64,000 nucleotides of DNA from Sulfolobales archaeon HS-7 (GTDB taxonomy: Archaea; Thermoproteota; Thermoprotei_A; Sulfolobales; Sulfolobaceae). Within the stretch, counting starts at the first letter, position 1; each line of letters begins with the position of its first letter. The notes below the pieces were generated by a model that saw nothing but the letters and a program-made list of their open reading frames with translations, ran no database searches and was not told the origin of the DNA. The stretch is taken from the NCBI GenBank assembly GCA_019704295.1, contig AP024596.1, positions 1,056,001 through 1,120,000 on the forward strand, given 5' to 3'. Position numbers and translations under genes: made by a program. Shown one piece after another: positions 19,400-36,346 of this stretch.

Positions 19400-20026
19400 T
19401 TAACCAAGGGACTCGATATCGATATGCTTACTTTGCGTCGAAATTCCCTTTTTACTAACGTTGGGGTTTGGGGCAAATTCCGATACAAAATAGTCGCTTT
19501 CGTATACAAAATCCTTGATCTTTCCTGAAACTTCGTACCAACTATTTCTAGGAGTTGTTCTATAGAGTCGTAATTTGAAATCCCTTGAAATTTCCTTAAG
19601 CGCAGTTAAACATACATCATATATTGGGCACTGCGAACACGGACCATTCCTCTTAATATCCACTCTATCAAGATATCCCGAATTAGAAATATATATTAGC
19701 TTATAAGATGGGATTTTCTCTCTATTAAAGGGTATCAATAGTTTTGCGATTATAGAGAAGTCCTTAGAAATTACCTGGTATTTTCTCAAATTTGAAAGTA
19801 AGTAATAGTAGTAACTCTTACTTATTTCAGTAATTTCGCTCCCTGTAAGTACATCAACGTATAAATCTGACATTAACTTATCGAATATATTTTCTTTAAT
19901 GAGTATTACTTTCCTATCCGTTAACGGCCTCTCTACCTTAATTCTCTTTACGGAGCATTTACTCTGTTTAGCTGAGTTAGAGCCATCCAGTGCTACTTGA
20001 TATGACATGTCTTGTACTCTACCCAA
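19400..20026 (-). CDS. Hypothetical protein with a CxxCxxxxxC motif
   Basis: Long ORF in AT-rich DNA containing PCSQCPIYDVC. The start codon is uncertain. Confidence 0.7.
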   Translation of the reverse strand: MGRVQDMSYQVALDGSNSAKQSKCSVKRIKVERPLTDRKVILIKENIFDKLMSDLYVDVLTGSEITEISKSYYYYLLSNLRKYQVISKDFSIIAKLLIPFNREKIPSYKLIYISNSGYLDRVDIKRNGPCSQCPIYDVCLTALKEISRDFKLRLYRTTPRNSWYEVSGKIKDFVYESDYFVSEFAPNPNVSKKGISTQSKHIDIESLG

Positions 20027-20309
20027 CTTCGATAATAATGATTGAATGTATTTAAGGTTAGATTATGAGAAGAATTAACACTATTATAGAGCACTAATAT
20101 AAATTTGTTAGCAAAAGTGGTATTAGTTATACTATTTATGATGTTTCTCCCTTGTTATATCTTGAAGAGTTGAGAAATTGCATAATTAAAGTTAAGACAT
20201 AATTAAGTATCTTATATATATTTTATAAAATTTTTTAGTAATGAGAATAGATTAGTAAGTGTCAATTTTTTTTAGAAGAGTTTTTAACTTTTTTTCTAAA
20301 TCATCACTC

Positions 20310-21299
20310 ATGAAGGTTCTGCTTTTTGAGAAATCCGGAATAGAGAACCTCAAGTATACTGATGTAAAGGATGAAGAACCTGAGACTCATCAAGTCAAAA
20401 TTAGGGTTCTCTCTGCAGGTGTTAATCCCATAGACTACTTCGTTGTAAACGGCATACCAGTCAGACCTCTCCCTCATATTCCTGGGGCAGAAATTTACGG
20501 AGAAGTTGAAAAAACAGGGGATAGCGTAAGGAACTTCAGTAGGGGGGATAAAGTTGTAGTTTACAACAGAGTGTTTGACGGAAGTTGCGATATGTGCCTA
20601 CAATCCAGTGAGAACTTATGTAGAAATGGCGGGATAATTAGCGTGATAACTAACGGAGGCTATTCTGAATTCTTTATAGTAGATGAGAAAAACCTAATTA
20701 AAGTTTCTGGAATATCGGAAGAAATTGCTGCTAGTCTGCCAGTGGCTGCGCTCACCGCTTATCATGGTTTGCGGACAGCAGGATTAAGAGCAGGAGAAAC
20801 TCTTGTAGTATTTGGTGCCTCAGGAAACACGGGACAGTTCGCTGTTCAGCTGGGGAAGATAATGGGAGCTCAGGTAATAGCAGTCTCTAAAAAGGGTTGG
20901 GTAAAGGAGTTAGGCGCTGACCTTGTTACCGACTTAAGCAATGTAAAGGATGTCGTCTCTAAGGTAACTGAGGGGAAGATGGCCGATGTGGTAGTCGATC
21001 CCCTGGGGGAGAAAACGTGGTTAAACAGTCTTGAGGTAGTAGGAGTTAAGGGAAGATGGGTGACTTTCGGTACATTAACTGGAAGTAATGTATCGGTTCA
21101 GTTAAATACGATTTACAGTAAGCACATTTCGCTGTTTGGAACAACTGGAGGTAATAGGAAAGAACTACAGGAGCTTACCTCACTTTCCAGGAAAATGAAG
21201 GTAAAAGTAGGAAAGGTCTTCTCGCTTGAGGAAGGAAAAGAGGCATTGAAATACCTAATGGCTGGAGATAGGGACGGAAGAGCAATAATTAAGGTCTAA
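20310..21299 (+). CDS. Medium-chain dehydrogenase/reductase (MDR)
   Basis: Start moved to the ATG at 20310 (MKVLLFEK). Structural Zn site D-C-C-C and GASGNTG. NPID and PGAE replace the catalytic Zn Cys/His, so it is quinone/enoyl-reductase-like. Confidence 0.88.
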   Translation: MKVLLFEKSGIENLKYTDVKDEEPETHQVKIRVLSAGVNPIDYFVVNGIPVRPLPHIPGAEIYGEVEKTGDSVRNFSRGDKVVVYNRVFDGSCDMCLQSSENLCRNGGIISVITNGGYSEFFIVDEKNLIKVSGISEEIAASLPVAALTAYHGLRTAGLRAGETLVVFGASGNTGQFAVQLGKIMGAQVIAVSKKGWVKELGADLVTDLSNVKDVVSKVTEGKMADVVVDPLGEKTWLNSLEVVGVKGRWVTFGTLTGSNVSVQLNTIYSKHISLFGTTGGNRKELQELTSLSRKMKVKVGKVFSLEEGKEALKYLMAGDRDGRAIIKV

Positions 21300-22200
21300 G
21301 GTTTCTACTTATTACGCTAGCTACCTCATAAATTAAGTTTGCTGCTAGCATAGCCGTTATTTCCGAGTGATCATATGGCGGACTAACTTCAACTACATCC
21401 ATGCCAACTATGTTAACCTCCAGCGATCTCAATAATTCCATTACTTCGAAACTGGTTAATCCCCCAACTTCAGGTGTTCCAGTGGCGGGGGCAAACGCTG
21501 GATCAACAACGTCTATGTCAAGGGATATGTAAACTGGTCCATTTAATTTCCTTAGTTCCTGGATAATTTTGTTGTAGTTATACTTTACATCTCTTATGTT
21601 GAATACGTGAACTCCCAGTTTCTTGGCATCCGAGAGGTCTTCCTTTGAAAACAGAGAACCTCGAATGCCTATCTGGTAGACATTATTAACCCTGTCCTCT
21701 TCTAAAGCCCTTCTTAACCACGTCCCGTGGGTATATTTCTTGCCTCCGAAATACGTATCCCAGAAATCGTAATGAGAGTCGAAGTGAATTAAATTGGCCT
21801 TTCCCTTTACTTTATGTAATGCCCTTAAAACTGGGAGAGTTATTGAATGATCTCCTCCAGCTATTAACGGTATCTTATTTACAAACTCCTGACTTAAGTG
21901 TTCCTCAATTCTTCTCATCGTATCCTCTATATATCCTGGTACGACATTGACGTCCCCATCATCACACATCATCAATTCATCGAAAGGTTCCGAGTCAACG
22001 AAAGGATTATAAGGTCTGAGTAGACGAGAACCATCCCTTATTGCCATTGGACCAAATCTTGCGCCTGGTCTGTAAACTACTCCATCATCAAACGGAATAC
22101 CTATGAAGGCAGCTTTTTCTTTTCCATTACACGTAGGTAACCTAGCGAAAGTAGATATTTGAGTAAATCTAGGAGATTCAAAAGCGTTTATCTGCCTCAT
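21289..22200 (-). CDS. speB: Agmatinase (ureohydrolase family)
   Basis: GARFGP, GGDHS, DSHYD, DIDVVDPAFAP and VEVSP motifs. Confidence 0.9.
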   Translation of the reverse strand: MRQINAFESPRFTQISTFARLPTCNGKEKAAFIGIPFDDGVVYRPGARFGPMAIRDGSRLLRPYNPFVDSEPFDELMMCDDGDVNVVPGYIEDTMRRIEEHLSQEFVNKIPLIAGGDHSITLPVLRALHKVKGKANLIHFDSHYDFWDTYFGGKKYTHGTWLRRALEEDRVNNVYQIGIRGSLFSKEDLSDAKKLGVHVFNIRDVKYNYNKIIQELRKLNGPVYISLDIDVVDPAFAPATGTPEVGGLTSFEVMELLRSLEVNIVGMDVVEVSPPYDHSEITAMLAANLIYEVASVISRNLRP

Positions 22201-22785
22201 GACAGTACTTTCGCGATTATCATTAAATTTTCTCCTATTACTTCATCACTCTTAAAGTAAGTCGAGGAGATAAAAGATCCTAGGACTTACAGGAGTTCTT
22301 AATGAATTTAGTTCATTTGGAAAAATAGAGCAAATTAACTTGAACGTTTCTCATTAACCGGAGAGAGACCATAGTTTATAGTTTCCTTATTCAACCTGTC
22401 TCAGCCATAATTACAATAAGGAATTCATACCTAAATGCCCGAATCTTTCCTTAAGAACCTATACCCTGTAAAGAGAAAACATCAATACGCCTTTTGGTTT
22501 CGAGGAGATCCCACAATATTTACAAGAGAGAGTTAAAGGTTCTCAATCACGATAAGCTCAATCTAATACCTGTTAACCCTGATTACTTAACATTTAGGAA
22601 AAGCTGCCTCAGTAATGGATACTCATGCCAATAATGGCCCGACCTAACCTTCGGTATGAGGCGGATTGGGATAGACACCTATTTGAAAAGCAAAACTGGA
22701 AGTATGTAGATGTCCTGGTTCAGAAATGCGACCTATAGATTCTAACGAAAATTCTAGAGTAAATAATGGTTGAAAGTAGAATTAT

Positions 22786-23688
22786 TTACGTTTTACTTAA
22801 TTTCTTTATCTCCCTATACGAACTTATCAGCGAAGTCACTCCTATTACGCCTACTATTGTTACAACAAGTATAAATCCTACGTTGATCGCGTCTAGGTTG
22901 GGTATTGGGTTTCCCGTAGGCAGTGCTATGTTATCGATGGGCGGTATAAGGATTATAAGTAGTCCTGCAAGTAAGAATACGATCCCCCCATAGTATAAAG
23001 TCCGTCCAGCAGTTCTAGACGCAACTTTTGCTATTTGCTCTTCCGTTATCTTCTTTATCTTCATAATGCTAGCAAATATCGCACCGAAAATAACTTGCAT
23101 TGACATAGTTCCTAATCCGAACATTAAGCCTGGAATTGGAGCGTAAACTATTGATGGCATTCTCGGAGCCAACACAAAGGTAATTATAGTGGCATAGGCA
23201 CCAAAACCGAAACCGGCTATTAACCCATGAATTATCGTCATTTTAAGCGGTATTTTACCCTCAATCTCCTCATTAAGGGGAATTCTGATGGCCTTTTCCG
23301 TGTGATGACTTTTCCCCCCTATAGCTAAATCAATAGGAATATGGATGTACTTTCCTTTAAGCACGTAAGACCCTGCTATTGCCATAACTAATCCTACTAT
23401 TACATAAACCGGTCCATCAAGATTGTACTTCTGATATATATACGCAAGACCGATAAACCCGAGTGTTGTAAGTAGCATCCTCTGAACAGTGAATCCAAGA
23501 GAGAAAAGAAATCCAGCCTTCATTCCCCTCCGGGTGCTGTACTCCCCTATCGCATAGCTGAAAGTTATTGGCCATGTATGTTCGTCAGGTGTGGCTCCGT
23601 GTAATAGACCGAGAATATAGCTGATCAGTATTACTTCGCCTACGGTCAAAGTTGAAGGGGGATTTAGTATATCAGACAGGCTAATCAT
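22786..23688 (-). CDS. NicO/UreH-like Ni/Co transporter-family membrane protein
   Basis: GLLHGATPDEH His motif, His-containing loop and multiple TMs. Start moved to the ATG at 23688. Confidence 0.65.
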   Translation of the reverse strand: MISLSDILNPPSTLTVGEVILISYILGLLHGATPDEHTWPITFSYAIGEYSTRRGMKAGFLFSLGFTVQRMLLTTLGFIGLAYIYQKYNLDGPVYVIVGLVMAIAGSYVLKGKYIHIPIDLAIGGKSHHTEKAIRIPLNEEIEGKIPLKMTIIHGLIAGFGFGAYATIITFVLAPRMPSIVYAPIPGLMFGLGTMSMQVIFGAIFASIMKIKKITEEQIAKVASRTAGRTLYYGGIVFLLAGLLIILIPPIDNIALPTGNPIPNLDAINVGFILVVTIVGVIGVTSLISSYREIKKLSKT

Positions 23689-23763
23689 ATGTATTAGGGT
23701 AACCCTAACACTATATAAGCTCATCGTTATAAAATGTTTACACTTTAACATATAAATGGTCGT

Positions 23764-24633
<870 letters not shown>

Positions 24634-24662
24634 TTAGTGCAATTCTTGCTTTAATATTTCTC

Positions 24663-24732
24663 GAGTCTAGGACAAAATAGTTTAATGGGTTTCTAAATTT
24701 ACATACGATTTCAGGATTTTTAATCTAACACT
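24663..24732 (+). repeat. Left 70-bp inverted end of the composite transposon
   Basis: GAGTCTAGGACAAAATAG...AATCTAACACT. Confidence 0.95.
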
Positions 24733-24738
24733 TTAGAC

Positions 24739-25254
24739 TACATTAGGTCATGAATCGCGACCTTTGCTAAGACCGTCAAGTGGACCCTCTCTTCCCTGAC
24801 CTTGTTTATGATCCACCCTGTCCTTCTTGGAGGAGATCAGACACTCCGCCTTCTTACGCTCGACTCCTCCACTCCAGTGTTCATGAGCCTCAATATCGTC
24901 TTCACCCTTTCCCTCCTTTGATCGTGGTGTTAGACTTAGGTATCTAGTAGACCTCGGATCAGGGAAGTCATCAAGTGTAGACTAGTACTTGTCAGCCCTC
25001 AAGGAGTCCACTTGCACGCCAAGATCCCTTAGGACCTCTAGGGCCATCCTTTAAGCTTCTTGCCCTTAAGCGAGTAACTAAGCGATCAAGTTACTGCCTA
25101 GGTAATGAAGAGTACACGAAGTCCTTTCCTTCCTTTATCTCTTCCCCGGACTTCTCCACTCATGTAATACTCACTAAGGGAATAGCCTGTCCATGACCGC
25201 ATCAATCCTAAGGCCATTAACGCTCTTTGAGAGCAGGTTATAGAGGATGACGTT
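24739..25254 (-). pseudogene. Degraded transposase, ISA1214/ISC1043-like (C-terminal part)
   Basis: Hand translation across frameshifts gives TGYSLS, KDFVYS, ALEVLRDLGVQVDSLRADKY, IPKSN and GWIINKVREERVHL..AIHDLM*. The family is assigned from recalled motifs. Confidence 0.7.
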
Positions 25255-26702
25255 GTGACAGTGTGCTATGTGTAATTAAAGTTAATAACTAAATAAAGTA
25301 AAAAGTTATGAAAAACGTCTTTTCAAAATTAAGTTCGCTTAATTATTAGAGAGAATAATATAAAATCACTTTATTAAGTGCACTCGCAACTAATCTCGAA
25401 ACTTTCAAGAATTGCTCGATTCAGGTTTCCATTACGAATTGCAATTATGGAAAATAGGGATTAAATAAAGGAAATTATTAAGTACTAATCTCTATCCAGT
25501 CTAAACAATTGCATTCAATTAAATCCATTCTACTTTTCTAAATAAATCGAATTCGCAACGAACGCGTTAACGGTCCCGAGAATCAAGGCTAGAGACGAGT
25601 TTCTCTAGCGAGGTTTTAAGTGGAGATCTCAGCGTTTAGTAATGGATCTAAACCACTAAATATTGTAAGCCAGGCCTGAGAGGTTGGCAAAGACGTTCAA
25701 TCCCCTTATGCTCCTCGCGTAAGGCCTCATGTTCTGAGGAAAGTGTCAAAGAACTTTACGCCTCCTCTCAGTATTCCCAAGCCCCTCTTGACTCTGTTCA
25801 CCTTGCCTTTCTCGGCAAACCCCCTGTCCACAAGCGTGATCACGTTGCAGATAGGAGACTTAAAGTCGGAAAAGTTTGCCGGAACTATCTTAACCTTGCA
25901 AACCATGAGGGTCTTAAGGAGATCTCGGCGAAGCACTTCCCTCCGAACCAGGTTCTGTCCCACTTCTTTCCCCAGCTTCCCTCATGTTCCCTAAGGGTGT
26001 AGTTTCTAGGGAAATGGGAGAAGAGTTTCTCCCTTTTTTTCTCATCAAGAGATGCTAGCACTTTATGGGGTTTCCTCTTTGGATCAATTTCCCTGAGATC
26101 CAGTACAAGCTTCTCAATGTATATCTCAACGCTCTTCTCTCCGGGAGGAGGCTTTACAGGAAAGCTGTCCATCAACATTTGCCTTCCAAATTTCTCCTTT
26201 GCTAGGAAGTGGTGGAAGTTGCTCCTCGTTAACGCGCGACTCCAATCTCGTTAAGACCTTGAGTGGCGGATCCCTTATTCTATCATCTTACTTATATGCA
26301 AATCAGTGCAATGAAGACCTTGAGGGTACCTCTTTAACGCCACGGAAAACCTTGACCACTTTATTGGTAACCGTAAGTTCACTTCTCTATACGACTTATG
26401 GAAAGCGCCCTCACAATCAGCATCTTCAAGTAGACTACGTTCGTACTTGAAGGACTTGCGGTCCTTGAACTCTCTTTCAATTACGTCCTCCAACTCACTC
26501 AGGACTTCCTCGTACTCCAAAAGATATTTACTCTTCCAACCCAACTCTTGGGGGATTACGTCTTGGTAAATCATCACTATGGTATAACCTAAGCGTAATC
26601 CCCCTTAAGTATTATCCCGTTAGTTGAGTTCTTGATATTTATTTTCTCGCAAAAATTTACCAATAAACTAGATTACATTTATTCGAGATTGGACATTGTC
26701 AC
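25255..26702 (-). mobile_element. Degraded IS with a DDE transposase pseudogene (IS5/IS982-like; fragments about 25640-26577)
   Basis: Collinear fragments 26275-26577, 25885-26178 and 25727-25963 carry DSFP, WFGGK and DRGF. Imperfect inverted ends GTGACAGTGTGC and GTGACAATGTCC. Confidence 0.68.
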
Positions 26703-26856
26703 GAGTTAGTACTACTCTTACCAATTACATAGTTCTAGCTATTATTTTCATAATATTCGGGGAGGTTTTACTAGTTAAAATAGGTAAAATCTAAAAAAGA
26801 AGAAATTAAAAGAGAAAATTAAATAAAGGATTTATTCCAAGTATATTCAAATTGGT

Positions 26857-27609
26857 CTAGGATAATATATCAAGCCCTACTTTATCGAGGTTTTTAAGCC
26901 AGTTAAGGAATTTTTTAGCGTTGTCTCCTATAAATATTGAGCCGTGTTGGGGAGTAACAATATTAATTTCCAAGCCTTCTATTTTCTTAGACCAAAGTTC
27001 TATAGCTCTTCTCGAAGCTATATACCTCCTGTGAAACCATTCCATAGTTTTGACATGCTCATCAAAATTATCTACTATTAAATACCACTTATCTTTAAAG
27101 ACAGCTGCACCCATGTCTCCAGAGAAGTAAATTTTTGCTATCGGGTCGTAATAGTGGAAGTTACCTGGAGAGTGCATAAAGTGAGCTGGTATGGCTTTGA
27201 CCATAAACGTACCGAAGTTAATGTCCATACCTTCATCAGGTAGATCTATTATCCTATCCCGTAGGTCAACTCCCAAGTGGGGGATGAACCTCTCCCATAA
27301 ATATGACACATAGATTTTAGCGTTGGGCGCCATGTCGAGCCATAACGTTAGTCCGCCTATAACGTCAGGGTCTTGATGGGTATATAATATTGCCTTAATG
27401 TTTTCTGGCTTAACGAACCTAGTAGCGTTTTCGAAGACCCTTTCGAAGACGAAATAACCGCCAGGGTCGATCAGTATCCCCTGTTCGCCATGCATGACGA
27501 GGTACTGGTTAGTTAATATACCTTTTTCGGCTTCGCTTTCGTCCAGTCCTAGCCAAACAAATTTGTGATCATTTGAGTCGTATAATATGTAAGGCTCATG
27601 AACTTTCAT
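26857..27609 (-). CDS. Oxygen-binding di-iron protein (ODP), stand-alone FprA-like metallo-beta-lactamase fold
   Basis: NQYL, DPGG, THQDPD, PAHFMHSPGN, SGD and PQHG motifs. No flavodoxin domain. The probable start is the ATG at 27609. Confidence 0.87.
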   Translation of the reverse strand: MKVHEPYILYDSNDHKFVWLGLDESEAEKGILTNQYLVMHGEQGILIDPGGYFVFERVFENATRFVKPENIKAILYTHQDPDVIGGLTLWLDMAPNAKIYVSYLWERFIPHLGVDLRDRIIDLPDEGMDINFGTFMVKAIPAHFMHSPGNFHYYDPIAKIYFSGDMGAAVFKDKWYLIVDNFDEHVKTMEWFHRRYIASRRAIELWSKKIEGLEINIVTPQHGSIFIGDNAKKFLNWLKNLDKVGLDILS

Positions 27610-28399
27610 CTTTGATAACACCCGGGATCTCTGGGACAAGTAATACGTATACGTTAACTTTGAACTCGCCTGAGAGCGAACTTAACGCATTTTCGTCATT
27701 GAAGTACTCTTTTCCATTATCGTTTACATAGACCCCTTTTAGTTCTCCGTTTATGAAGAGTAACCTGAAAGAGGCTGAGGTAGCCGATGCGGACACATAG
27801 ATAGTTCTATACTTTGAAAGAACTTCTCCTATAGAACCTAGAACCGTATCAAGCATTTGTCCCTTAGGTATTGATATTCCTTCGGACTTCACCAGACGGG
27901 ACTTCAGTAGAAGTTTTGAGACGAAACTCAACTTGTTTAGTTGCTTAGAATAATCGAATTCCTTTTCATTAGACTCAGCTTCTATTTCGGAAACTCTCTT
28001 AACTTCTTTATTTATTCCTTCTAGTAGACTCTCTGCTATATCAGGTAAGTATTTCTTCACAATCCACTCTTTTTCTCCGCCATATTCTATGGCCATATGG
28101 ACCAAAATAGTAGAGTTCTTATTATCTCTTACACTGATAAAAATTTGAAACTTATTATTTCTACTTTTTAATGACTTAAGAGTATAGCCGAACATCAATG
28201 ATGACTGTTTAGAAAAAGAGATTTCGAAAGTGTCTTTAAAACTTAATACCAAAAATCTTGAGAACTGTAAGGTAAGAGTATTCCTTCCTTTTTCTACTTG
28301 GTATGGAAAGTAAGAGAGTAATGTATCAGCATCTTTTACCACTGAAATTACGGTATTTGAATTAGCGTCTACAGCCTTTTCAGCCAGATAAGTTACCAT
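27596..28399 (-). CDS. Hypothetical two-domain protein (possible SRPBCC/START-like N-terminus and DUF2226/PATAN-like C-terminus)
   Basis: Intact 267-aa ORF overlapping the ODP start, with C-terminal FRLLFINGELKGVYV. The domain calls are inference. Confidence 0.7.
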   Translation of the reverse strand: MVTYLAEKAVDANSNTVISVVKDADTLLSYFPYQVEKGRNTLTLQFSRFLVLSFKDTFEISFSKQSSLMFGYTLKSLKSRNNKFQIFISVRDNKNSTILVHMAIEYGGEKEWIVKKYLPDIAESLLEGINKEVKRVSEIEAESNEKEFDYSKQLNKLSFVSKLLLKSRLVKSEGISIPKGQMLDTVLGSIGEVLSKYRTIYVSASATSASFRLLFINGELKGVYVNDNGKEYFNDENALSSLSGEFKVNVYVLLVPEIPGVIKDESS

Positions 28400-29706
28400 A
28401 TATGTATATATTTGGAGGAAGAGGTTAAAAAGATTATCGTACAGTAAAGATAATAATTGAAACCTTTAACAGTGTTAAACGACTTGATTTTATTTAATGA
28501 TTGTCTCTACTCCTGAACAACTTGAACAAGTCCTGGCACCAGATATCGTCATTAATACAGTTGTGTTTCGCCAATTTTACTAAAAATGAGATAATTCCTA
28601 AACATGGGAAAATTCCGCTTAAGAGTAGAAATTAACTAAATTTCTGCTAAGGTGGAGAAAGAATCGATATTTATCTCAGAAAGAGGTGTGTAACCTAGCT
28701 TTTACACGTACAGTAATACCTTGTGTTTAGTATTATCAAGTGGGGAGAAATGAGGACGTTAAAGTTTAAGCGAGGGACTTTCCAAATTTTGGTATGAAGG
28801 AAATCAAGGCGAGGAACAAGTCTCTCGCTAATAGTAGAGGAAGCGTTTAAGAAGATTTCCTCTAATCCCCGGGACGTTATCAAGAGGAGCAAATCTCTCC
28901 TCTTGGGGAATAGAGGAAAGGACTACATTTCTCTTGTAAGACAAGGGAAAAAGCTAGGAGAACTCTTGAGTAAAACCTTAGAGTTCTAGGAGCTGTGTAC
29001 AATTTCACGAGCGAGAAGATTGTGCTCGGTTTCGACGAGACCTTCTTGAGGGTGGCAGAGAAGGAAGCAGAGAGAGAGGGGGACGAACTGTTCTCGGGAA
29101 AGGCCAAGGTTAGATCCGCAGTTCTCTTGTCTCCCGTGAGATGTAACGTGGTTACCCAATTCGCAGTTCCGGGGGGATCAAAAGCCCTCCGAGTTTCTTC
29201 GAGAGTTCGTCAATAAGGCTTTACAGCACGTCAGCTTGGCTTACGTCGTTGCTAACGCTGGATTCCTCAACCTCGAGATCCTCAAGGAGTTACCCGCTAA
29301 AACTGTGATCAGAGGGAAAACTAACTTGAAGGGAGTCAAGGAACTCTTTGCCTAGCCCCTTACCGTGAGGTACCACGCAGTTAAGGACAGAACTTACGTT
29401 GCCTATAGAAGGCTAGATTACAAGGAACTCTACTATTACGACGTGATTTACGTGAAACACAAGGGGACACCAATGCACTCCTTTTTCGTGTCCAACATTG
29501 AGGAAGATCCTTACAGCCTGGCCGAGACCTACAGGTCGAGGTGGCAAATAGAGGAAGGGTTCAAGACGAGGAAGGCTAGAATAGAACTCATAAGGGGGTT
29601 ATGTAACAAGCTCTTCCTGATCTACGCCCTTCTCGACACTTCCTGGAACTTGTACCTCTTCCTCTCGTTTAACTTCAAGGCGCTACATGCTTCGCCTCTA
29701 ACACAG

Positions 29707-30827
29707 CTATGGGAACAGCGTGTTCAAAACACTACTTACGTCAACGTCGTAGTCCTTGACGTTCTTAGCCTTGGCCAACTTCGACCTCTTTGTAACTAAA
29801 CCCTTGTACACACCATCCACTAGAACGTGGTAGCTGATGCTGGCGAGCTTCCCCGCGAGCGCACAAGTTGCCTCAATGCTACTTTTACCCTTGGCGATGA
29901 GCCTCTCGTAGAAATCCGCAAAGGGTCCACGCCTTGCTATCATAGCGCACAAGTAAAGTGTCCTTCGCAAGTACTTGTTACCCTCTATCATGCCCACGTG
30001 GGACTCGCTATTTCCACTCTGCTTGGTCCTGGGGACGAAGCCCGTATAAGCTCTCGCAGCCTTAGAGCTTGGAAAGCGAGAGACGTCGCCGAACTCGGCG
30101 TAGATCACCGCAGCGGTCCAACTCCGGGGATCTAGGAGAGCTCTACAACTTCTTGTGGGATTTTCGAAGGTTAGCTTTCTCGACGTCCTTTATCATGTCC
30201 TCCAGTTGCTTTAACAACTCTACAAGCTGTGCAAGCATTAACCGCTCGGCTCGGTTCAGTGTTCTTCCCAATTTCTCGCCTAACTCCCTCTTGTCCTCCT
30301 GCTTCAACTCTCCCTTGGACAGCTTCTCAAGCAGCCCCCTCTTGTTGAACGGCTCTAACTTGTACCTAGCGGTTTCTAGAATTTTCCTTATCTCGTCACT
30401 TGCGCCTCTTTCTCCACAAGGCTTGTCCTGTACCTCGTTAGCTCTCTTAGCTCCCTTATCTCCCCATCAGGTATGTATGAACCTTTTACTACTCCCGTCA
30501 TGAAGGCCATTACAAGCCTTTGCGCGTCGAGTTTATCCGTCTTCTTCCCGAGTATTTCGGACAAGTGCAAGGGGTTAACTACAGTTATCTTGAAACCTCT
30601 CTCCGTGAGTTTCTCGTGCAGGTAGTAGAAGGGCCTGTAGCCTCCATTATTCCCTCCTTGTAATTACCGAGGAATTTCACGAGCTCCTCTATCCCCTCGT
30701 TGTCGTACTTGAATTCCCTCACTTCCTTGATTGAATACGGATTTCCCTTGTTCCACTAGAAGCTCTCCCTTTGCTACTGTTAACTCTCGGATATGTCTAT
30801 CGCGAAGGCCTTGGTGACAGCTTCCAT
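29707..30827 (-). pseudogene. IS110 DEDD recombinase pseudogene
   Basis: AIDIS, VNPLH, KTDKLDA, AEFGDVSRF, QSG and GNKYLRRTLY motifs spread across several frames. Confidence 0.9.
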
Positions 30828-30829
30828 GG

Positions 30830-31105
30830 TATACCTTACTCACTCGTGATATATTACCTTAACTAGCGTAATACCGTCCCTCTCGTTTCTTAGCATTAAC
30901 TAGCGTCAACCCCTAGAGAAACTTGTTACAACCTCGAGGGTTCTATCCCCTCTTGTGTTCTAGAGACATCACAGCCAGCCTTGAAGACGGGGTTTTCCCC
31001 TCCAAACCGCTAGGCTTACCTTGTTTTACCCTTGCTACCTCATATGCTTAACTCACGTAATACTTGTTTTATCTTCATAACTAGTAGTACACGTTTTTCC
31101 CGTGG
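30830..31105 (-). ncRNA. Candidate IS110 bridge/seek RNA region
   Basis: About 275-bp non-coding end upstream of the recombinase, containing hairpins. Inferred from known IS110 architecture. Expression is not shown. Confidence 0.4.
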
Positions 31106-31380
31106 AAGGCACCGAGAGAGAAGCCTCTCTCGTTTGATCAGTTCGTCAATCTCCTCTAAGCGTTTTCAAGCTACAGGGTGGACTATGTACCTCGTTTTAA
31201 CCTCGTGAAATAAATTCAGAACTTCCCATCCTTTTTATCATTAACTTATAAAATATTCTAGATTTCGACTAAACATATCATATTGTTATGCTTCTCATAT
31301 TGACCTAATCCTATATTTTTATACAACAATTACGTTAATAATATCTTACAACCGTGAAATTTTTTGGTGAAACAAGACTG

Positions 31381-31450
31381 AGTGTTAGATTAAAAATCCT
31401 GAAATCGTATGTAAATTTAGAAACCCATTAGACTATTTTGTCCAAGCCTC
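31381..31450 (-). repeat. Right 70-bp inverted end of the composite transposon
   Basis: Reverse complement of 24663-24732 with 3 mismatches. Confidence 0.95.
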
Positions 31451-31929
31451 ATATTTCTCGGTAATTCTTTTTTCTAGTATTTTATGTGAAACTTAATTAA
31501 AAAGGAACTAAATTTTCTGCAGAGTTTTGGTTTACAAAGTAGTAGTTAAGACGGGAAAAGCTTTACTGCTTACGGTGGAGATATGTAACCCCCTTGTACA
31601 TAAATATCCTTTCGTTAAGGTTTCTTTTAGCGATGTTAATGTTTCTCTTTTCCAGCTCGATTGAGGGTTTAGTGAGATTAAGGGACGAGTAACAAGTCTA
31701 GCCCTTACTGTATCCAGACAGCGTAAATTATCGATCTCTACTTTCAGGAAGGAGACTTTCTATACCCCGCCTACCAAAGAAAGATGTAACCCTAAATCAA
31801 CAGTGGAAAAGATGAGCCATCACAAAGGAACAGTTGCCTCGGTCAGGTAATAAGGAACCGTTGTAAAAACAGGCTACTTTACTATTCCTTAACAGAAAGG
31901 CATCTATATGATTACCGGCACCCTTAACT

Positions 31930-32502
31930 CTAAGACTCTTCCACTACGGAATTAATCTTCCTTAACGACTTAGCTAAACTAGCGAGGTTTTCAAGATGTT
32001 CTTTAATGAATTTCTTCGCATCGTCATCCAATAGTACTCCCTTTTCGTCAAATCTCTTCGAGGCGAATGTTATGATCACCTCTGGCCTATTAACCGCTGT
32101 AATGTTGAGAAATGTAAATATCTGTCTTAAGTGAAGTTGTGCTCTTTCTCCACCGATCATTCCAATCGATGCACTCATAATTCCTGCTACCTTACCGTCA
32201 AATACGTTGTCGTTATAGGGTCGCGATGCCCAATCTATTGCGTTTTTTAATACTCCAGGAACTGAGTAATTATATTCCGGTGTAACGAAAAGAAGGGCGT
32301 CCGCTTCTCTAATTCTTCGTTTGAAATCCCTTACTACTTCGGGCAGATCGCTCTCCAAGTCCTGATTAAATAGAGGGAACTCCCCTAGTCTCTCAAAAAG
32401 TTCTATTTTCATATATTCTGGTGCAAGACTCTGAGCGTTTTTAAATAGCATCATGTTATACGAATTTTTCCTCAAGCTTCCTACAATGCCGAGGACTTTC
32501 AT
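31930..32502 (-). CDS. NAD(P)H-dependent FMN reductase (ChrR-like)
   Basis: GSLRKNSYN and TPEYNYSVPGVLKNAIDWASR. Confidence 0.93.
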   Translation of the reverse strand: MKVLGIVGSLRKNSYNMMLFKNAQSLAPEYMKIELFERLGEFPLFNQDLESDLPEVVRDFKRRIREADALLFVTPEYNYSVPGVLKNAIDWASRPYNDNVFDGKVAGIMSASIGMIGGERAQLHLRQIFTFLNITAVNRPEVIITFASKRFDEKGVLLDDDAKKFIKEHLENLASLAKSLRKINSVVEES

Positions 32503-32583
32503 TTTGCTCTAATGTCAGTTTTAGGCTAAAACATAAAAGCTTTTACTTAATGATGTAAAAAAACGTCAAATATCTTTTACTTT

Positions 32584-33849
32584 TTAAAACAGAGCTTCAC
32601 CGACTCTCTCCCTTGGTGCGGGTATAACAAAGATCAAAGCTAATAATCCCCCTATAATTCCAACTAGAGACGTTGCTACTGCTTGACTTATGCCTGTGAA
32701 CAGCAGGAAGGTACTTATGTAAGGGGCGAATGAACTAAATGCTACGCCCACGTTAATTATGAGACCTATACCGGAGTATCTGACCTTTGTCTCTATGCTT
32801 TCAGCCAGCCACGCCGGCAAAACAGCGTATTGTGCCCCAAAAATTAAACCCATAATTGCGCCAGACACAATTGCTAGACCTAGTGAACGTGAGGTCATCA
32901 TAAGGAACAATGGATAGTTTATAACTGCCATAATTATGTAAAAGGTTATCAATATTTTCTTTCTGGTCCCTATATTATCGCTTAAAAGGCCGAAAAACGG
33001 ACTAGTGAAAAGCCATACTGCACTTGAAACGAGTATTACCAGAGATGTCTCACCTGGTGAGAAGTTAAGAAGAGGTAAAAGCGTTCCCATATAGCCTAAA
33101 GTGCTGTAGTAGTATAAGGCCTCTCCAAAAATAACTACAACAGCTATTACTATGAACTTCCAGTATTTTCTTAACGCTGTTGCTATGGGAATTTTCTCTA
33201 CTGCAAGTTTAGCCTCCTTTTCCCAGACAGGACTTTCCCCTATAGACCATCTAACAATAAATGCAATGAGTAGAGGTAACAGTCCGAACCAGAAAACTAT
33301 CCTCCATCCTATAGTATCGAAAGTTGTTGTTGTCGGGGCTAAAAATGACGCAAGTGCAATAGCGGCGGAGCCGAAAATACCTCCTAGTGCGGCGCCTGCT
33401 TGTGATATTCCTCCAAAGAATCCCCTTCTATTGTTTGGTGCGAACTCAGTCGTTATTGTCATTCCTCCCGCCCACTCTCCTCCTAGGAAGAAACCCTGTC
33501 CGAACCTAAGGATTACGATGAGTATAGTAGCAGCTATTCCTATCGACTGATAGGTCGGGAGAAATCCAATGAGCAAAGTTGCTAGTCCCATGCCCAATAA
33601 CGAGATTAACCAGTACGTTTTCCTACCGAGCTTGTCACCGAAGTGGGCCAAAACAATTGCACCTATAGGTCTTGCGAAATAGCCTATAACTAGAGTTATG
33701 AGGGCTTCTAAAAGGCTTGCTGCGTAACTTGAGGAAGGGAAAAAGAGTGGAGCTATTGCCGTGCTTACGTATATAAAGGTTAACAGGTCGTATAACTCTA
33801 GAGCCCATCCCAAATTGGCCGATATGGCCACTTTCCACGCGTCATTCAT
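32584..33849 (-). CDS. MFS transporter, metabolite:H+ symporter family
   Basis: ELYD, RPIG, GDKLGRK, GGEWAG and ESP motifs with about 12 TMs. Confidence 0.9.
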   Translation of the reverse strand: MNDAWKVAISANLGWALELYDLLTFIYVSTAIAPLFFPSSSYAASLLEALITLVIGYFARPIGAIVLAHFGDKLGRKTYWLISLLGMGLATLLIGFLPTYQSIGIAATILIVILRFGQGFFLGGEWAGGMTITTEFAPNNRRGFFGGISQAGAALGGIFGSAAIALASFLAPTTTTFDTIGWRIVFWFGLLPLLIAFIVRWSIGESPVWEKEAKLAVEKIPIATALRKYWKFIVIAVVVIFGEALYYYSTLGYMGTLLPLLNFSPGETSLVILVSSAVWLFTSPFFGLLSDNIGTRKKILITFYIIMAVINYPLFLMMTSRSLGLAIVSGAIMGLIFGAQYAVLPAWLAESIETKVRYSGIGLIINVGVAFSSFAPYISTFLLFTGISQAVATSLVGIIGGLLALIFVIPAPRERVGEALF

Positions 33850-33944
33850 TTTAAACTCCTGTATACAAACTTTTATATAAAATTAACCATATAGTATGTG
33901 AAAAATAGCACATAGTTAAAAACTATAGATATATATAAATCAAT

Positions 33945-35012
33945 ATGAAGGCCGCAGTTATAAGAAACTACAACGGGGAAATTTCAGTTCAGGACGTCGA
34001 AGTAGAACGTCCAAGACGAGGAGAGGTTATGTTGAAGATCATAGCGACAGGACTTTGTCACTCCGACTTAAGTGCATATGAGGGTAAGATCCCCGTTCCG
34101 ACTCCATTCGTTGCAGGGCATGAGATATTCGGGGAGATCGTTGATATTGGCGAGGGAGTGACGAACTTCTCCGTTGGGGACAGAGTGATCATGGCGTTCA
34201 TTAAACCTTGCGGAAAATGCGAATACTGCGTAAAAGGGCAGGAAAATCTCTGCGAGAACTACGGTAAGAACGTATTGAGGGGTAAAATGTTAGACGGGAC
34301 GACTAGGCTTAGATTAAGGGGAGCGGAATTGAATATTCTGGGCGGTGGGGGGTTTTCTGAATACGCGGTTATAGAGGAAACTGGTCTAGCGAAAGTGCCA
34401 AATGAGATTTCAGATGAGAGTATTGCGGTGTTAGGATGTGCAGGATTAACGGGATATGGAGCGGTTAATAACGCCATGCCGATCTTCGGTAAACGCGTGA
34501 TGGTAATCGGAGTTGGAGGCGTAGGAATGTCCGTAATACAATGGGCGAAAATAGCAGGAGCTAGGGAAATAATAGCAGTGGATATATCAGATGAGAAACT
34601 TAAAAACGCAAGGGAATTGGGAGCTAAAATTATAAACTCTAACATTACGTCAAAAGAGCAAGTCGAAAACGAGAGTCCCGACGTTGTTATAGAGGTAGCA
34701 GGTACTACTAAAACTGAGGAAATGGCGGTAAATGTTGTCAAAAAGGGGGGAAAAGTCGTGTTTGTTGGGCTTCCAAACGTCAATGAGGCAGTAAGGATTT
34801 ACGGTGCAAGTGTAGTCAGAAAGGGTATTACGATCACGGGCAGTTACGGTGGAAGACCTAGGATTGACTTGCCCGCTATGATGGAATATGTGAAAAAAGG
34901 AATTTTTAGACCAGATCTGTTAGTGTCTAAAAGGTATTCTCTTGAAGAGCTTCCACGAGCATTACGTGATTTGGCGGAGGGAAGAATAGTAAGGGGTCTA
35001 ATTAACCCCTGA
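33945..35012 (+). CDS. Zn-dependent alcohol dehydrogenase, succinic-semialdehyde-reductase-like
   Basis: CHSD, GHE, CGKCEYC..C, GCAGLTGYG, GVGGVG and YGGRPR motifs. Confidence 0.9.
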   Translation: MKAAVIRNYNGEISVQDVEVERPRRGEVMLKIIATGLCHSDLSAYEGKIPVPTPFVAGHEIFGEIVDIGEGVTNFSVGDRVIMAFIKPCGKCEYCVKGQENLCENYGKNVLRGKMLDGTTRLRLRGAELNILGGGGFSEYAVIEETGLAKVPNEISDESIAVLGCAGLTGYGAVNNAMPIFGKRVMVIGVGGVGMSVIQWAKIAGAREIIAVDISDEKLKNARELGAKIINSNITSKEQVENESPDVVIEVAGTTKTEEMAVNVVKKGGKVVFVGLPNVNEAVRIYGASVVRKGITITGSYGGRPRIDLPAMMEYVKKGIFRPDLLVSKRYSLEELPRALRDLAEGRIVRGLINP

Positions 35013-35029
35013 TTTTGCCACCATAAAAC

Positions 35030-35255
35030 AATATCTTCTCGCCAATTTTACTAAAAACTACGCAATTACAAAATTCGAGAAAATTCGCATAAAAGAATGC
35101 AAACTAGTTTAATTTTTGTTGAGGTAGGGAAAGGATCGGCTCTTATATCAAGAGATTAGCACGTGACTAAGTTTTTACGCTATTGTAATACCATATGTAG
35201 TATTGAGTGGAAGAGGGCGTTAATGCTTAGCAAGGAAGTTCTTAACTCTTGTGCA
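35030..35255 (+). mobile_element. Relic of an ISH3-like left end
   Basis: TCGCCAATTTTACTAAAAA and the following sequence align with 28568-28790. Confidence 0.7.
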
Positions 35256-35317
35256 ACGCTAATAGTAGAAGTGGGGGGAGTTGCTTACTAGTAAATTAGT
35301 ATCGGGGGACGTTTAGG

Positions 35318-36346
35318 TCATTCCTCAAGTCCGAGCTCTCTCAATATCTCCTCTGTGTTCTCCCCTACTGAAGGTATTTGTTCATTTGATGTGGAGGAAA
35401 TCGGAAACGGAGGCAAGATATAATCCTTGAGTTTTTCCCAATTGACGTTTAACTTAAGCAATGACGGAATATCGTTATACGGTACAGCAGGTATGCCGTT
35501 CTTGAGCAGGATTTCTATTATTTCCTGCGTAGAGTATTCTGAAAATCTTTTCTGTAAAACGGCATGAAGTTCTTCTCTGTCATGTACCCTTTTCTTATTT
35601 GTGTTCCACTTCTCTTCATTTATCCCCAATATCCGACTCAGTTTTTCCCATTTTTCGTTATTGTTTACCGCCAGGTAGAACTTCTTTCCGTCCTTTCCCT
35701 CAAAAAGTTCATATGGCGCCCAAAATGGTAAGGCATCTCCCTTAGAGGGAAAGAGTTCTCCGAGCTTCTGATATGCTAGTATGTAATATCCCAGCCAATA
35801 CATTGCCGATTCAAAGAGGGTGACTTCGTAGTACCCAGGTCTGTTAAAGAGCAACGCATTAAGTACAGTTATTGTAGCATAGAGGGCAGTTGTCATATCG
35901 GTAATTGATGCTGGAAGTCTAGAATTCCCGTTACTCCACATAACTCCGCTGATGGCTTCTATCATTGTACCAAAGGCCGGATATTTACTCATATTACTTG
36001 GGAAGCCTTTTACTGAACAGTAAATTAAGTTGGGGTTTACCTCAGAGAGTTTTTTGTACTCCAATCCCAACCTTTCCATCGCTCCCGGTGACAAGTTTTC
36101 AATAACAACATTAGTTGTTTTTATTAACTCTATGAAAATTTTCTTATCATCCTCTTTCTTTAAATCCAGTACTATTGACTTCTTCCCCCTATTAATGAAG
36201 GAGAAAATCGTGTCGTCCATAACATCGTCTTTCCTTAAGGGATCTCCTCCGGGGGGTTCAACCTTGACAACTTCAAATCCTAACCTTTGTAATACGTATC
36301 CAGCGTAAGGTCCAGCTATGACAGAACCGACTTCAACTACTCTCAT
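35318..36346 (-). CDS. CaiB/BaiF (family III) CoA transferase
   Basis: IAGPYA, VKVEPP.GD, NRGKKSIVLDLK, EN..PG, and a C-terminal GENTEEIL.ELG. Confidence 0.92.
   Translation of the reverse strand: MRVVEVGSVIAGPYAGYVLQRLGFEVVKVEPPGGDPLRKDDVMDDTIFSFINRGKKSIVLDLKKEDDKKIFIELIKTTNVVIENLSPGAMERLGLEYKKLSEVNPNLIYCSVKGFPSNMSKYPAFGTMIEAISGVMWSNGNSRLPASITDMTTALYATITVLNALLFNRPGYYEVTLFESAMYWLGYYILAYQKLGELFPSKGDALPFWAPYELFEGKDGKKFYLAVNNNEKWEKLSRILGINEEKWNTNKKRVHDREELHAVLQKRFSEYSTQEIIEILLKNGIPAVPYNDIPSLLKLNVNWEKLKDYILPPFPISSTSNEQIPSVGENTEEILRELGLEE

Follow-up and report, generated by a model that had tools for sequence, protein, structure and literature searches.

A probable composite-transposon relic with ISC1043-like ends and a Stygiolobus-like gene pair in a Sulfolobales chromosome

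A 6.8-kb block of DNA next to the pip gene of Sulfolobales archaeon HS-7 is probably what remains of a composite transposon in the style of Tn10, with two inverted copies of an insertion sequence (IS) similar to ISC1043 as its arms and a cargo of Stygiolobus-like genes. The block occupies positions 24654–31459 of the window, by which we mean the whole 64,000-nucleotide stretch analysed here (G000:C1:1056001-1120000), and its source is a complete 2.15-Mb Sulfolobaceae chromosome. We call the ISC1043-like element of both arms IS-A, the secondary ISs inside the block IS-B, IS-C and IS-D, and the segment between IS-B and IS-C (26704–28557) the cargo. The structure of the two ends shows, with high confidence, that they integrated together, in one transposase-mediated event into the 9-bp target ATATTTCTC, 26 nt upstream of pip.

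The left arm is a 591-bp relic of IS-A on the minus strand (24663–25253), which holds the terminus GAGTCTAGGACAAA, a 60-nt non-coding end and the 3′ two-thirds of a frameshifted transposase gene (codons ~128–324). The right arm is a 70-bp inverted stub of the same IS-A end on the plus strand (31381–31450); it terminates in GTCCAAGCCTC on the outside, and on the inside it abuts, after exactly 70 bp, on the complete right end of IS-C at 31380. A repeat search of the window found 24663–24732 and 31381–31450 to form an inverted repeat of 70 nt, complementary at 67 of 70 positions (96%). The three mismatches lie at element positions 4, 7 and 20, and two of them fall in the terminal inverted repeat. 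Directly outside each arm stands a perfect copy of ATATTTCTC, at 24654–24662 on the left, 26 nt upstream of the pip start codon, and at 31451–31459 on the right. The chance of meeting a specified 9-mer at one fixed position is ~1e-5, as estimated from local base composition (0.3^7 x 0.2^2). When each flank is read in the orientation of its own IS copy, one is the reverse complement of the other; a single target duplication predicts this, and an oriented preference acting in two separate insertions would not give it. The arms are furthermore sister copies, 96% identical to each other and at most 91% identical to any other copy in the genome. Their inner parts are gone, 417 bp on the left and ~940 bp on the right, of an IS-A of ~1008 bp.

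A BLAST comparison of the block with its own genome revealed five other IS-A copies, at 546605, 1252232, 1276418, 1415024 and 1636072, each ~1.0 kb long and all starting at the same terminus. They match the left arm over more than 580 bp from this shared terminus, and have only ~16 bp in common with it at the opposite end, namely the terminal inverted repeat GAGTCTGGGACAAA... shared by both ends of IS-A. Since the right arm matches the left over all 70 bp and the two ends of the IS share only ~16 bp, the arms must be two copies of the same end. An intact 324-amino-acid transposase of the cognate family is encoded in the relative G017 (L041:1548-2522), and tblastn with this protein placed its amino acids 128–324 on the minus strand of 24723–25251, in two frames, so that the shared end is the one downstream of the transposase gene. 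The boundaries of the block match, to the base, the termini of full IS-A copies in five genomes, which read GAGTCTGGGAC...GTCCCAGACTC in the relatives. The inverted ends with their outer repeats, and the assignment of both to the transposase-downstream end of an ISA1214/ISC1043-type element, had been read from the sequence in an earlier note on this DNA, and both are thus borne out.

The 324-amino-acid transposase matched no Pfam or NCBIfam family at gathering level. Its homologue in Saccharolobus shibatae, 82% identical, carries the NCBI name "ISNCY family transposase", and among the full IS-A copies in relatives, which measure 1.0–1.08 kb, one in a genome of the genus Saccharolobus is exactly 1043 bp long. 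We take IS-A to be a member of the ISC1043/ISA1214 group (ISNCY in ISfinder), an identity that the NCBI name of the homologue and the length of this copy both fit. All six IS-A loci in the source genome are frameshifted relics and an intact cognate transposase is absent from it, so the intact partner IS that the earlier note had hoped to find by BLAST does not exist there.

The length of the duplication made by the cognate IS bears directly on the reading of the two flanks. We checked eight full IS-A copies from related genomes (G017, G046, G048, G018 and G058) for target duplications, and six of them were bordered by 9-bp repeats. Three repeats are perfect (CTCATAATG and GGTGTGGAT in G017, TCATAATTC in G046) and three agree at eight of nine positions (two copies in G048 and one in G018). 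Of the remaining two copies, that in G046 has an imperfect A-rich flank match and that in G058 has no duplication. One bona fide IS-A target in G048, CATATTTC, is similar to the target of the block. The cognate IS makes 9-bp duplications, and the 9-bp repeat around the block is accordingly the product of this type of transposase. A clearly different length had been named beforehand as fatal to the idea of a single two-ended unit inserted here; the relatives give 9 bp, and the idea holds. The block resembles the ISC1043/ISA1214 group in its GAGTCTGGGACAAA termini, in the size of the IS (1.0–1.08 kb), in the single transposase of ~324 amino acids and in the 9-bp duplications; it differs in holding relics only, and in that the same end occurs on both sides, in place of the usual left and right ends.

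On the pip strand the target duplication reads GAGAAATAT and begins 26 nt upstream of the pip ATG (region 24628–24662, minus strand). It overlaps a TATA-like sequence, AAATATTAAA, whose spacing is as expected for a leaderless archaeal transcript, and because 9 bp were duplicated, pip keeps the putative stretch of B recognition element (BRE) and TATA box whole. Scans of positions 20000–36000 for Rfam families and tRNAs found nothing.

The cargo, a 1.85-kb segment that is unique in the source genome, has a clear counterpart in another genus. Bases 26700–28562 are 90% identical to one place in the chromosome of Stygiolobus caldivivus (G011), and the homology stops within a few bases of the termini of IS-B and IS-C. 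The segment opens with the last 29 codons and the stop codon of a homologue of a 196-amino-acid S. caldivivus gene (26705–26794, plus strand), cut by the IS-B terminus, and closes with the opening 20 codons of a homologue of ornithine cyclodeaminase (28497–28556, plus strand), cut by the IS-C terminus. Between them lie two intact genes on the minus strand, the only ones left whole in the block. One encodes a 260-amino-acid protein of the ODP family with a metallo-beta-lactamase fold (26857–27639; Pfam ODP, 244 bits), and the other a 267-amino-acid partner without a Pfam or NCBIfam family (27596–28399). Comparison with S. caldivivus further showed that the native divergent intergenic region is retained (28400–28496).

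The ODP protein is 94% and the partner 89% identical in amino acid sequence to the S. caldivivus proteins, against ~70% and 40–53%, respectively, for homologues in other genera, and no closer relative of either was found among 5.8 billion proteins. Maximum-likelihood tree building for the gene pair placed the copy in the window as sister to that of S. caldivivus within the Stygiolobus clade, with 100/100 support. Relative to S. caldivivus, the ratio of nonsynonymous to synonymous substitution rates (dN/dS) is 0.085 for the ODP gene (dS 0.29) and 0.215 for the partner gene (dS 0.23), low values which show that the pair has been kept under purifying selection. The 267-amino-acid partner is co-inherited with ODP across the family, yet diverges much faster than ODP.

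In S. caldivivus and several other genera, the pair stands in the order methyltransferase, 196-amino-acid gene, ODP pair, cyclodeaminase and cobalamin adenosyltransferase, with no ISs nearby, and this conserved order, from methyltransferase to adenosyltransferase, is the native context of the pair. At a native locus at 1.885 Mb (G000:C1:1884589-1885957; L064 2590-3958), the source genome encodes an ornithine cyclodeaminase and a cobalamin adenosyltransferase of its own, whose amino acid sequences are just 48% and 58% identical, respectively, to those of the S. caldivivus genes that adjoin the ODP pair. The ODP pair is absent from that locus, and the pair in the block is the only one in the genome. 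By these comparisons the cargo is a horizontally acquired piece of a Stygiolobus-like chromosome. It is possible that the transposon-borne, Stygiolobus-type pair represents a replacement by horizontal transfer.

Between the arms and the cargo, the block is filled with nested IS debris. IS-B (25254–26703) is a degraded IS5-like element of ~1.28 kb with the terminal repeats CGTGACAGTGTCC, an intact homologue of which in G007 encodes a DUF772 transposase; it is interrupted by a ~160-bp repeat resembling a miniature inverted-repeat transposable element (MITE; 25413–25576), of which BLAST found dozens of copies in the same genome. IS-C (28558–31380, plus strand) is 1.4 kb long without the insert that splits it, namely IS-D (29679–31108, minus strand), a frameshifted IS110-family element with DEDD_Tnp_IS110 and Transposase_20 fragments. 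Both IS-B and IS-C have IS-A sequence on their outer side and unique cargo DNA on their inner side, and neither has a target duplication here; IS-B is flanked by GGATGACGT and AGTTAGTAC, and IS-C by TCATTAATA and AGTGTTAGA. The families of both have many copies in the source genome. The missing interiors of the arms, together with the absence of IS-B and IS-C duplications, show that deletions or inter-IS recombination came after insertion, and that no simple cut produced the right arm.

IS-C has CAGT termini, a length of 1403 bp and a match to DDE_Tnp_1 (28 bits), and three of its genomic copies (843829–845219, 2002834–2004236 and 1279230–1280617) carry 9-bp repeats, which are GTAAACTAG, GATATTTTC and CT(C/T)ATGGAG. 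The ISH3 family has CRGT termini, a length of 1225–1500 bp, a DDE transposase and duplications of 4–5 bp (PMC2266710). The termini, the size and the DDE domain of IS-C agree with this description, whereas its 9-bp duplications do not, and we have not filed it as ISH3. Of the earlier proposal that an ISH3-like IS had cut the right arm, the stop at 70 bp against the terminus of a CAGT-ended DDE element therefore stands, whereas the simple insertion and the duplication length of ISH3 do not. A second IS-A stub (end positions 2–42) lies at G000:C1:1331575-1331615; only 11 bp separate it from the left end of a further IS-C, which is 98.6% identical to the reference IS-C copy. IS-C has thus truncated an IS-A end at least twice, at a different position and in a different orientation.

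In the source genome, every ISC1043-like copy is frameshifted and 10–30% diverged, as are most copies from the three other IS families examined, and marker-gene completeness is only 91% even though the genome is one contig. Its appearance is that of an old IS graveyard, not of a site of active transposition.

The identical type of the two ends, their descent as sister copies and a 9-bp repeat of the length made by the family together show the integration of both ends in one event. We infer that the ODP genes were cargo at the time of transposition. A fragment like that of S. caldivivus, with the 196-amino-acid gene, the ODP pair and ornithine cyclodeaminase, would first have entered the lineage; two inverted copies of IS-A would then have come to bracket it, and the resulting composite transposon would have moved to its present place upstream of pip. 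Later, IS-B (IS5-like) may have landed in the left arm and IS-C (CAGT-ended, DDE type) in the right arm, each causing an adjacent inward deletion by which the inner arm was lost and the cargo trimmed to 1.85 kb. The MITE nested in IS-B and IS-D, the IS110 element nested in IS-C, would have come last. The element is now an old, immobile, decayed relic: the arms are truncated, the terminal repeats have suffered substitutions and the genome holds no intact cognate transposase. Within it the ODP genes survive whole, together with their native promoter region.

Several observations weigh against a composite transposon that arrived with this cargo. Neither arm keeps its inner end. The cargo adjoins IS-B and IS-C, not IS-A, and since neither of these has a duplication at the joints, the cargo need not have been present when the unit transposed; the pair of adjacent deletions is a postulate. 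Most IS-A relics in the source genome have no recognisable duplication. A DNA search of three Stygiolobus genomes found no IS-A. On the other side of the balance, the left arm is closest to the source genome's own IS-A relics (84% and 82%), not to copies in other genomes, and arms and cargo accordingly differ in origin. A search of a plasmid collection gave no match to either the cargo or IS-A. The empty site was not found in contig searches either: an exact-pattern search of genome contigs and metagenome contigs for the predicted empty junction had no match, nor did a search of metagenome contigs for the left flank alone, and an exact-protein look-up of pip returned no record elsewhere. Among the genomes compared, the source genome is the only species of its genus, and in the nearest relatives examined, two of which have both pip and the FMN reductase gene, these two are not adjacent. 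The relatives hence cannot confirm an ancestral junction. They do have the ODP pair in its different, conserved context and not between pip and the FMN reductase, the arrangement that the earlier note had named as contradicting its reading.

The joints of the cargo lend some weight to another history, in which the two-ended IS-A insertion is real and the ODP segment came later, by a double crossover through IS-B and IS-C that replaced the original interior with a segment flanked by other copies of these ISs, either elsewhere in the genome or on incoming DNA. IS-B and IS-C without duplications, with IS-A outside and cargo inside, are what such a double crossover would give, and both families are present in multiple copies, so that the missing duplications are accounted for as well as by the deletions. 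This history, however, needs a second locus where the 196-amino-acid gene carried IS-B and the cyclodeaminase gene IS-C, both ISs oriented to match, and neither this locus nor the reciprocal product, orphan inner parts of IS-A beside IS-B or IS-C, has left a trace. A search for such orphans returned two items only: 52 bp of the IS-A right end, standing alone with no IS beside it, and, next to another IS-C, an unrelated stub with 41 bp of the IS-A left end. The later arrival of the cargo thus takes as many events as the deletions do, plus a donor locus that has vanished, and we regard it as rather unlikely.

Only the outer termini are needed for the transposition of a DDE-type IS. A block already non-autonomous, with truncated arms in the manner of a mobile insertion cassette, might accordingly have been moved in its present form by an ISC1043-like transposase supplied in trans, and both termini and the duplication are indeed present. 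The earlier note had leaned towards mobilisation in trans since it judged the ends far better conserved than any internal transposase sequence. This did not hold up across the paralogous IS-A copies, of which the first 70 bp are 84–86% identical and the interior 65–86%, which leaves the ends with no marked advantage in conservation. The terminal repeat itself holds two of the three mismatches that separate the arms, and the 96% identity of the arms reflects sister copies, not selection on the ends. An intact cognate transposase is absent from the source genome, and the sequence does not tell whether the inner insertions came before or after the transposition. Mobile insertion cassettes and MITE-like derivatives do resemble the block in having IS termini around non-transposase DNA, and in its present state the block would need a transposase in trans; unlike them, it keeps two-thirds of the transposase gene in its left arm, which points to descent from full IS copies and not from a minimal cassette. 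Movement in the present form is, on this evidence, improbable.

Two independent insertions of IS-A in opposite orientations, with the 9-bp identity due to chance or to a target preference, are scarcely credible: some IS-A targets do share an ATTTC-like motif beside this end, but an exact 9-mer at a fixed position has the ~1e-5 chance given above, an oriented preference cannot yield flanks that are reverse-complementary in the orientation of their own IS copies, and the arms are closer to each other than to any other copy. Two further structures were considered and rejected. A single IS-A with long terminal repeats disagrees with the full copies, whose ends share only ~16 bp. Replicative inversion would leave the duplication copies inverted, one inside and one outside the element, as described for the IS6 family (PMC7986276).

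Compared with composite transposons of the Tn10/Tn5 type, the block, read as the relic of such an element, has two inverted copies of one IS with the same outside end on both sides, a 9-bp duplication around the unit as a whole, and passenger DNA enclosed by the arms. It differs in that its IS is of the archaeal ISNCY/ISA1214 type and not IS4, in that its arms are truncated from the inside, to 591 bp and 70 bp of ~1.0 kb, and in that its cargo abuts secondary ISs, no transposase is left and no mobility has been seen. Of the hallmarks of a composite transposon, the block thus has the same IS on both sides, genuine outer termini and a duplication length typical of the IS; it lacks a cargo contiguous with the inner IS ends and an available functional cognate transposase. 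It is an element of a known kind whose passenger has a clear inter-genus origin, with no new mechanism and no current mobility. In the literature that we searched, mainly open-access papers, no composite transposon of Sulfolobales is described.

Sulfolobales genomes are crowded with ISs, yet it is hard to find a clear instance of host genes that ISs carried along as one unit. The locus provides base-resolved evidence for a two-ended integration of the ISC1043 type, linked to a gene pair from another genus, and, with ends and target both defined, it could serve a transposition assay. It also documents a route by which horizontally acquired genes may be fixed in thermoacidophilic archaea. We propose, tentatively, that an ISC1043-type composite transposon was the vehicle that integrated genes from an S. 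caldivivus-like donor, and that two identical downstream ends suffice for transposition in archaea. If they do, intact relatives could mobilise such units in trans even now.

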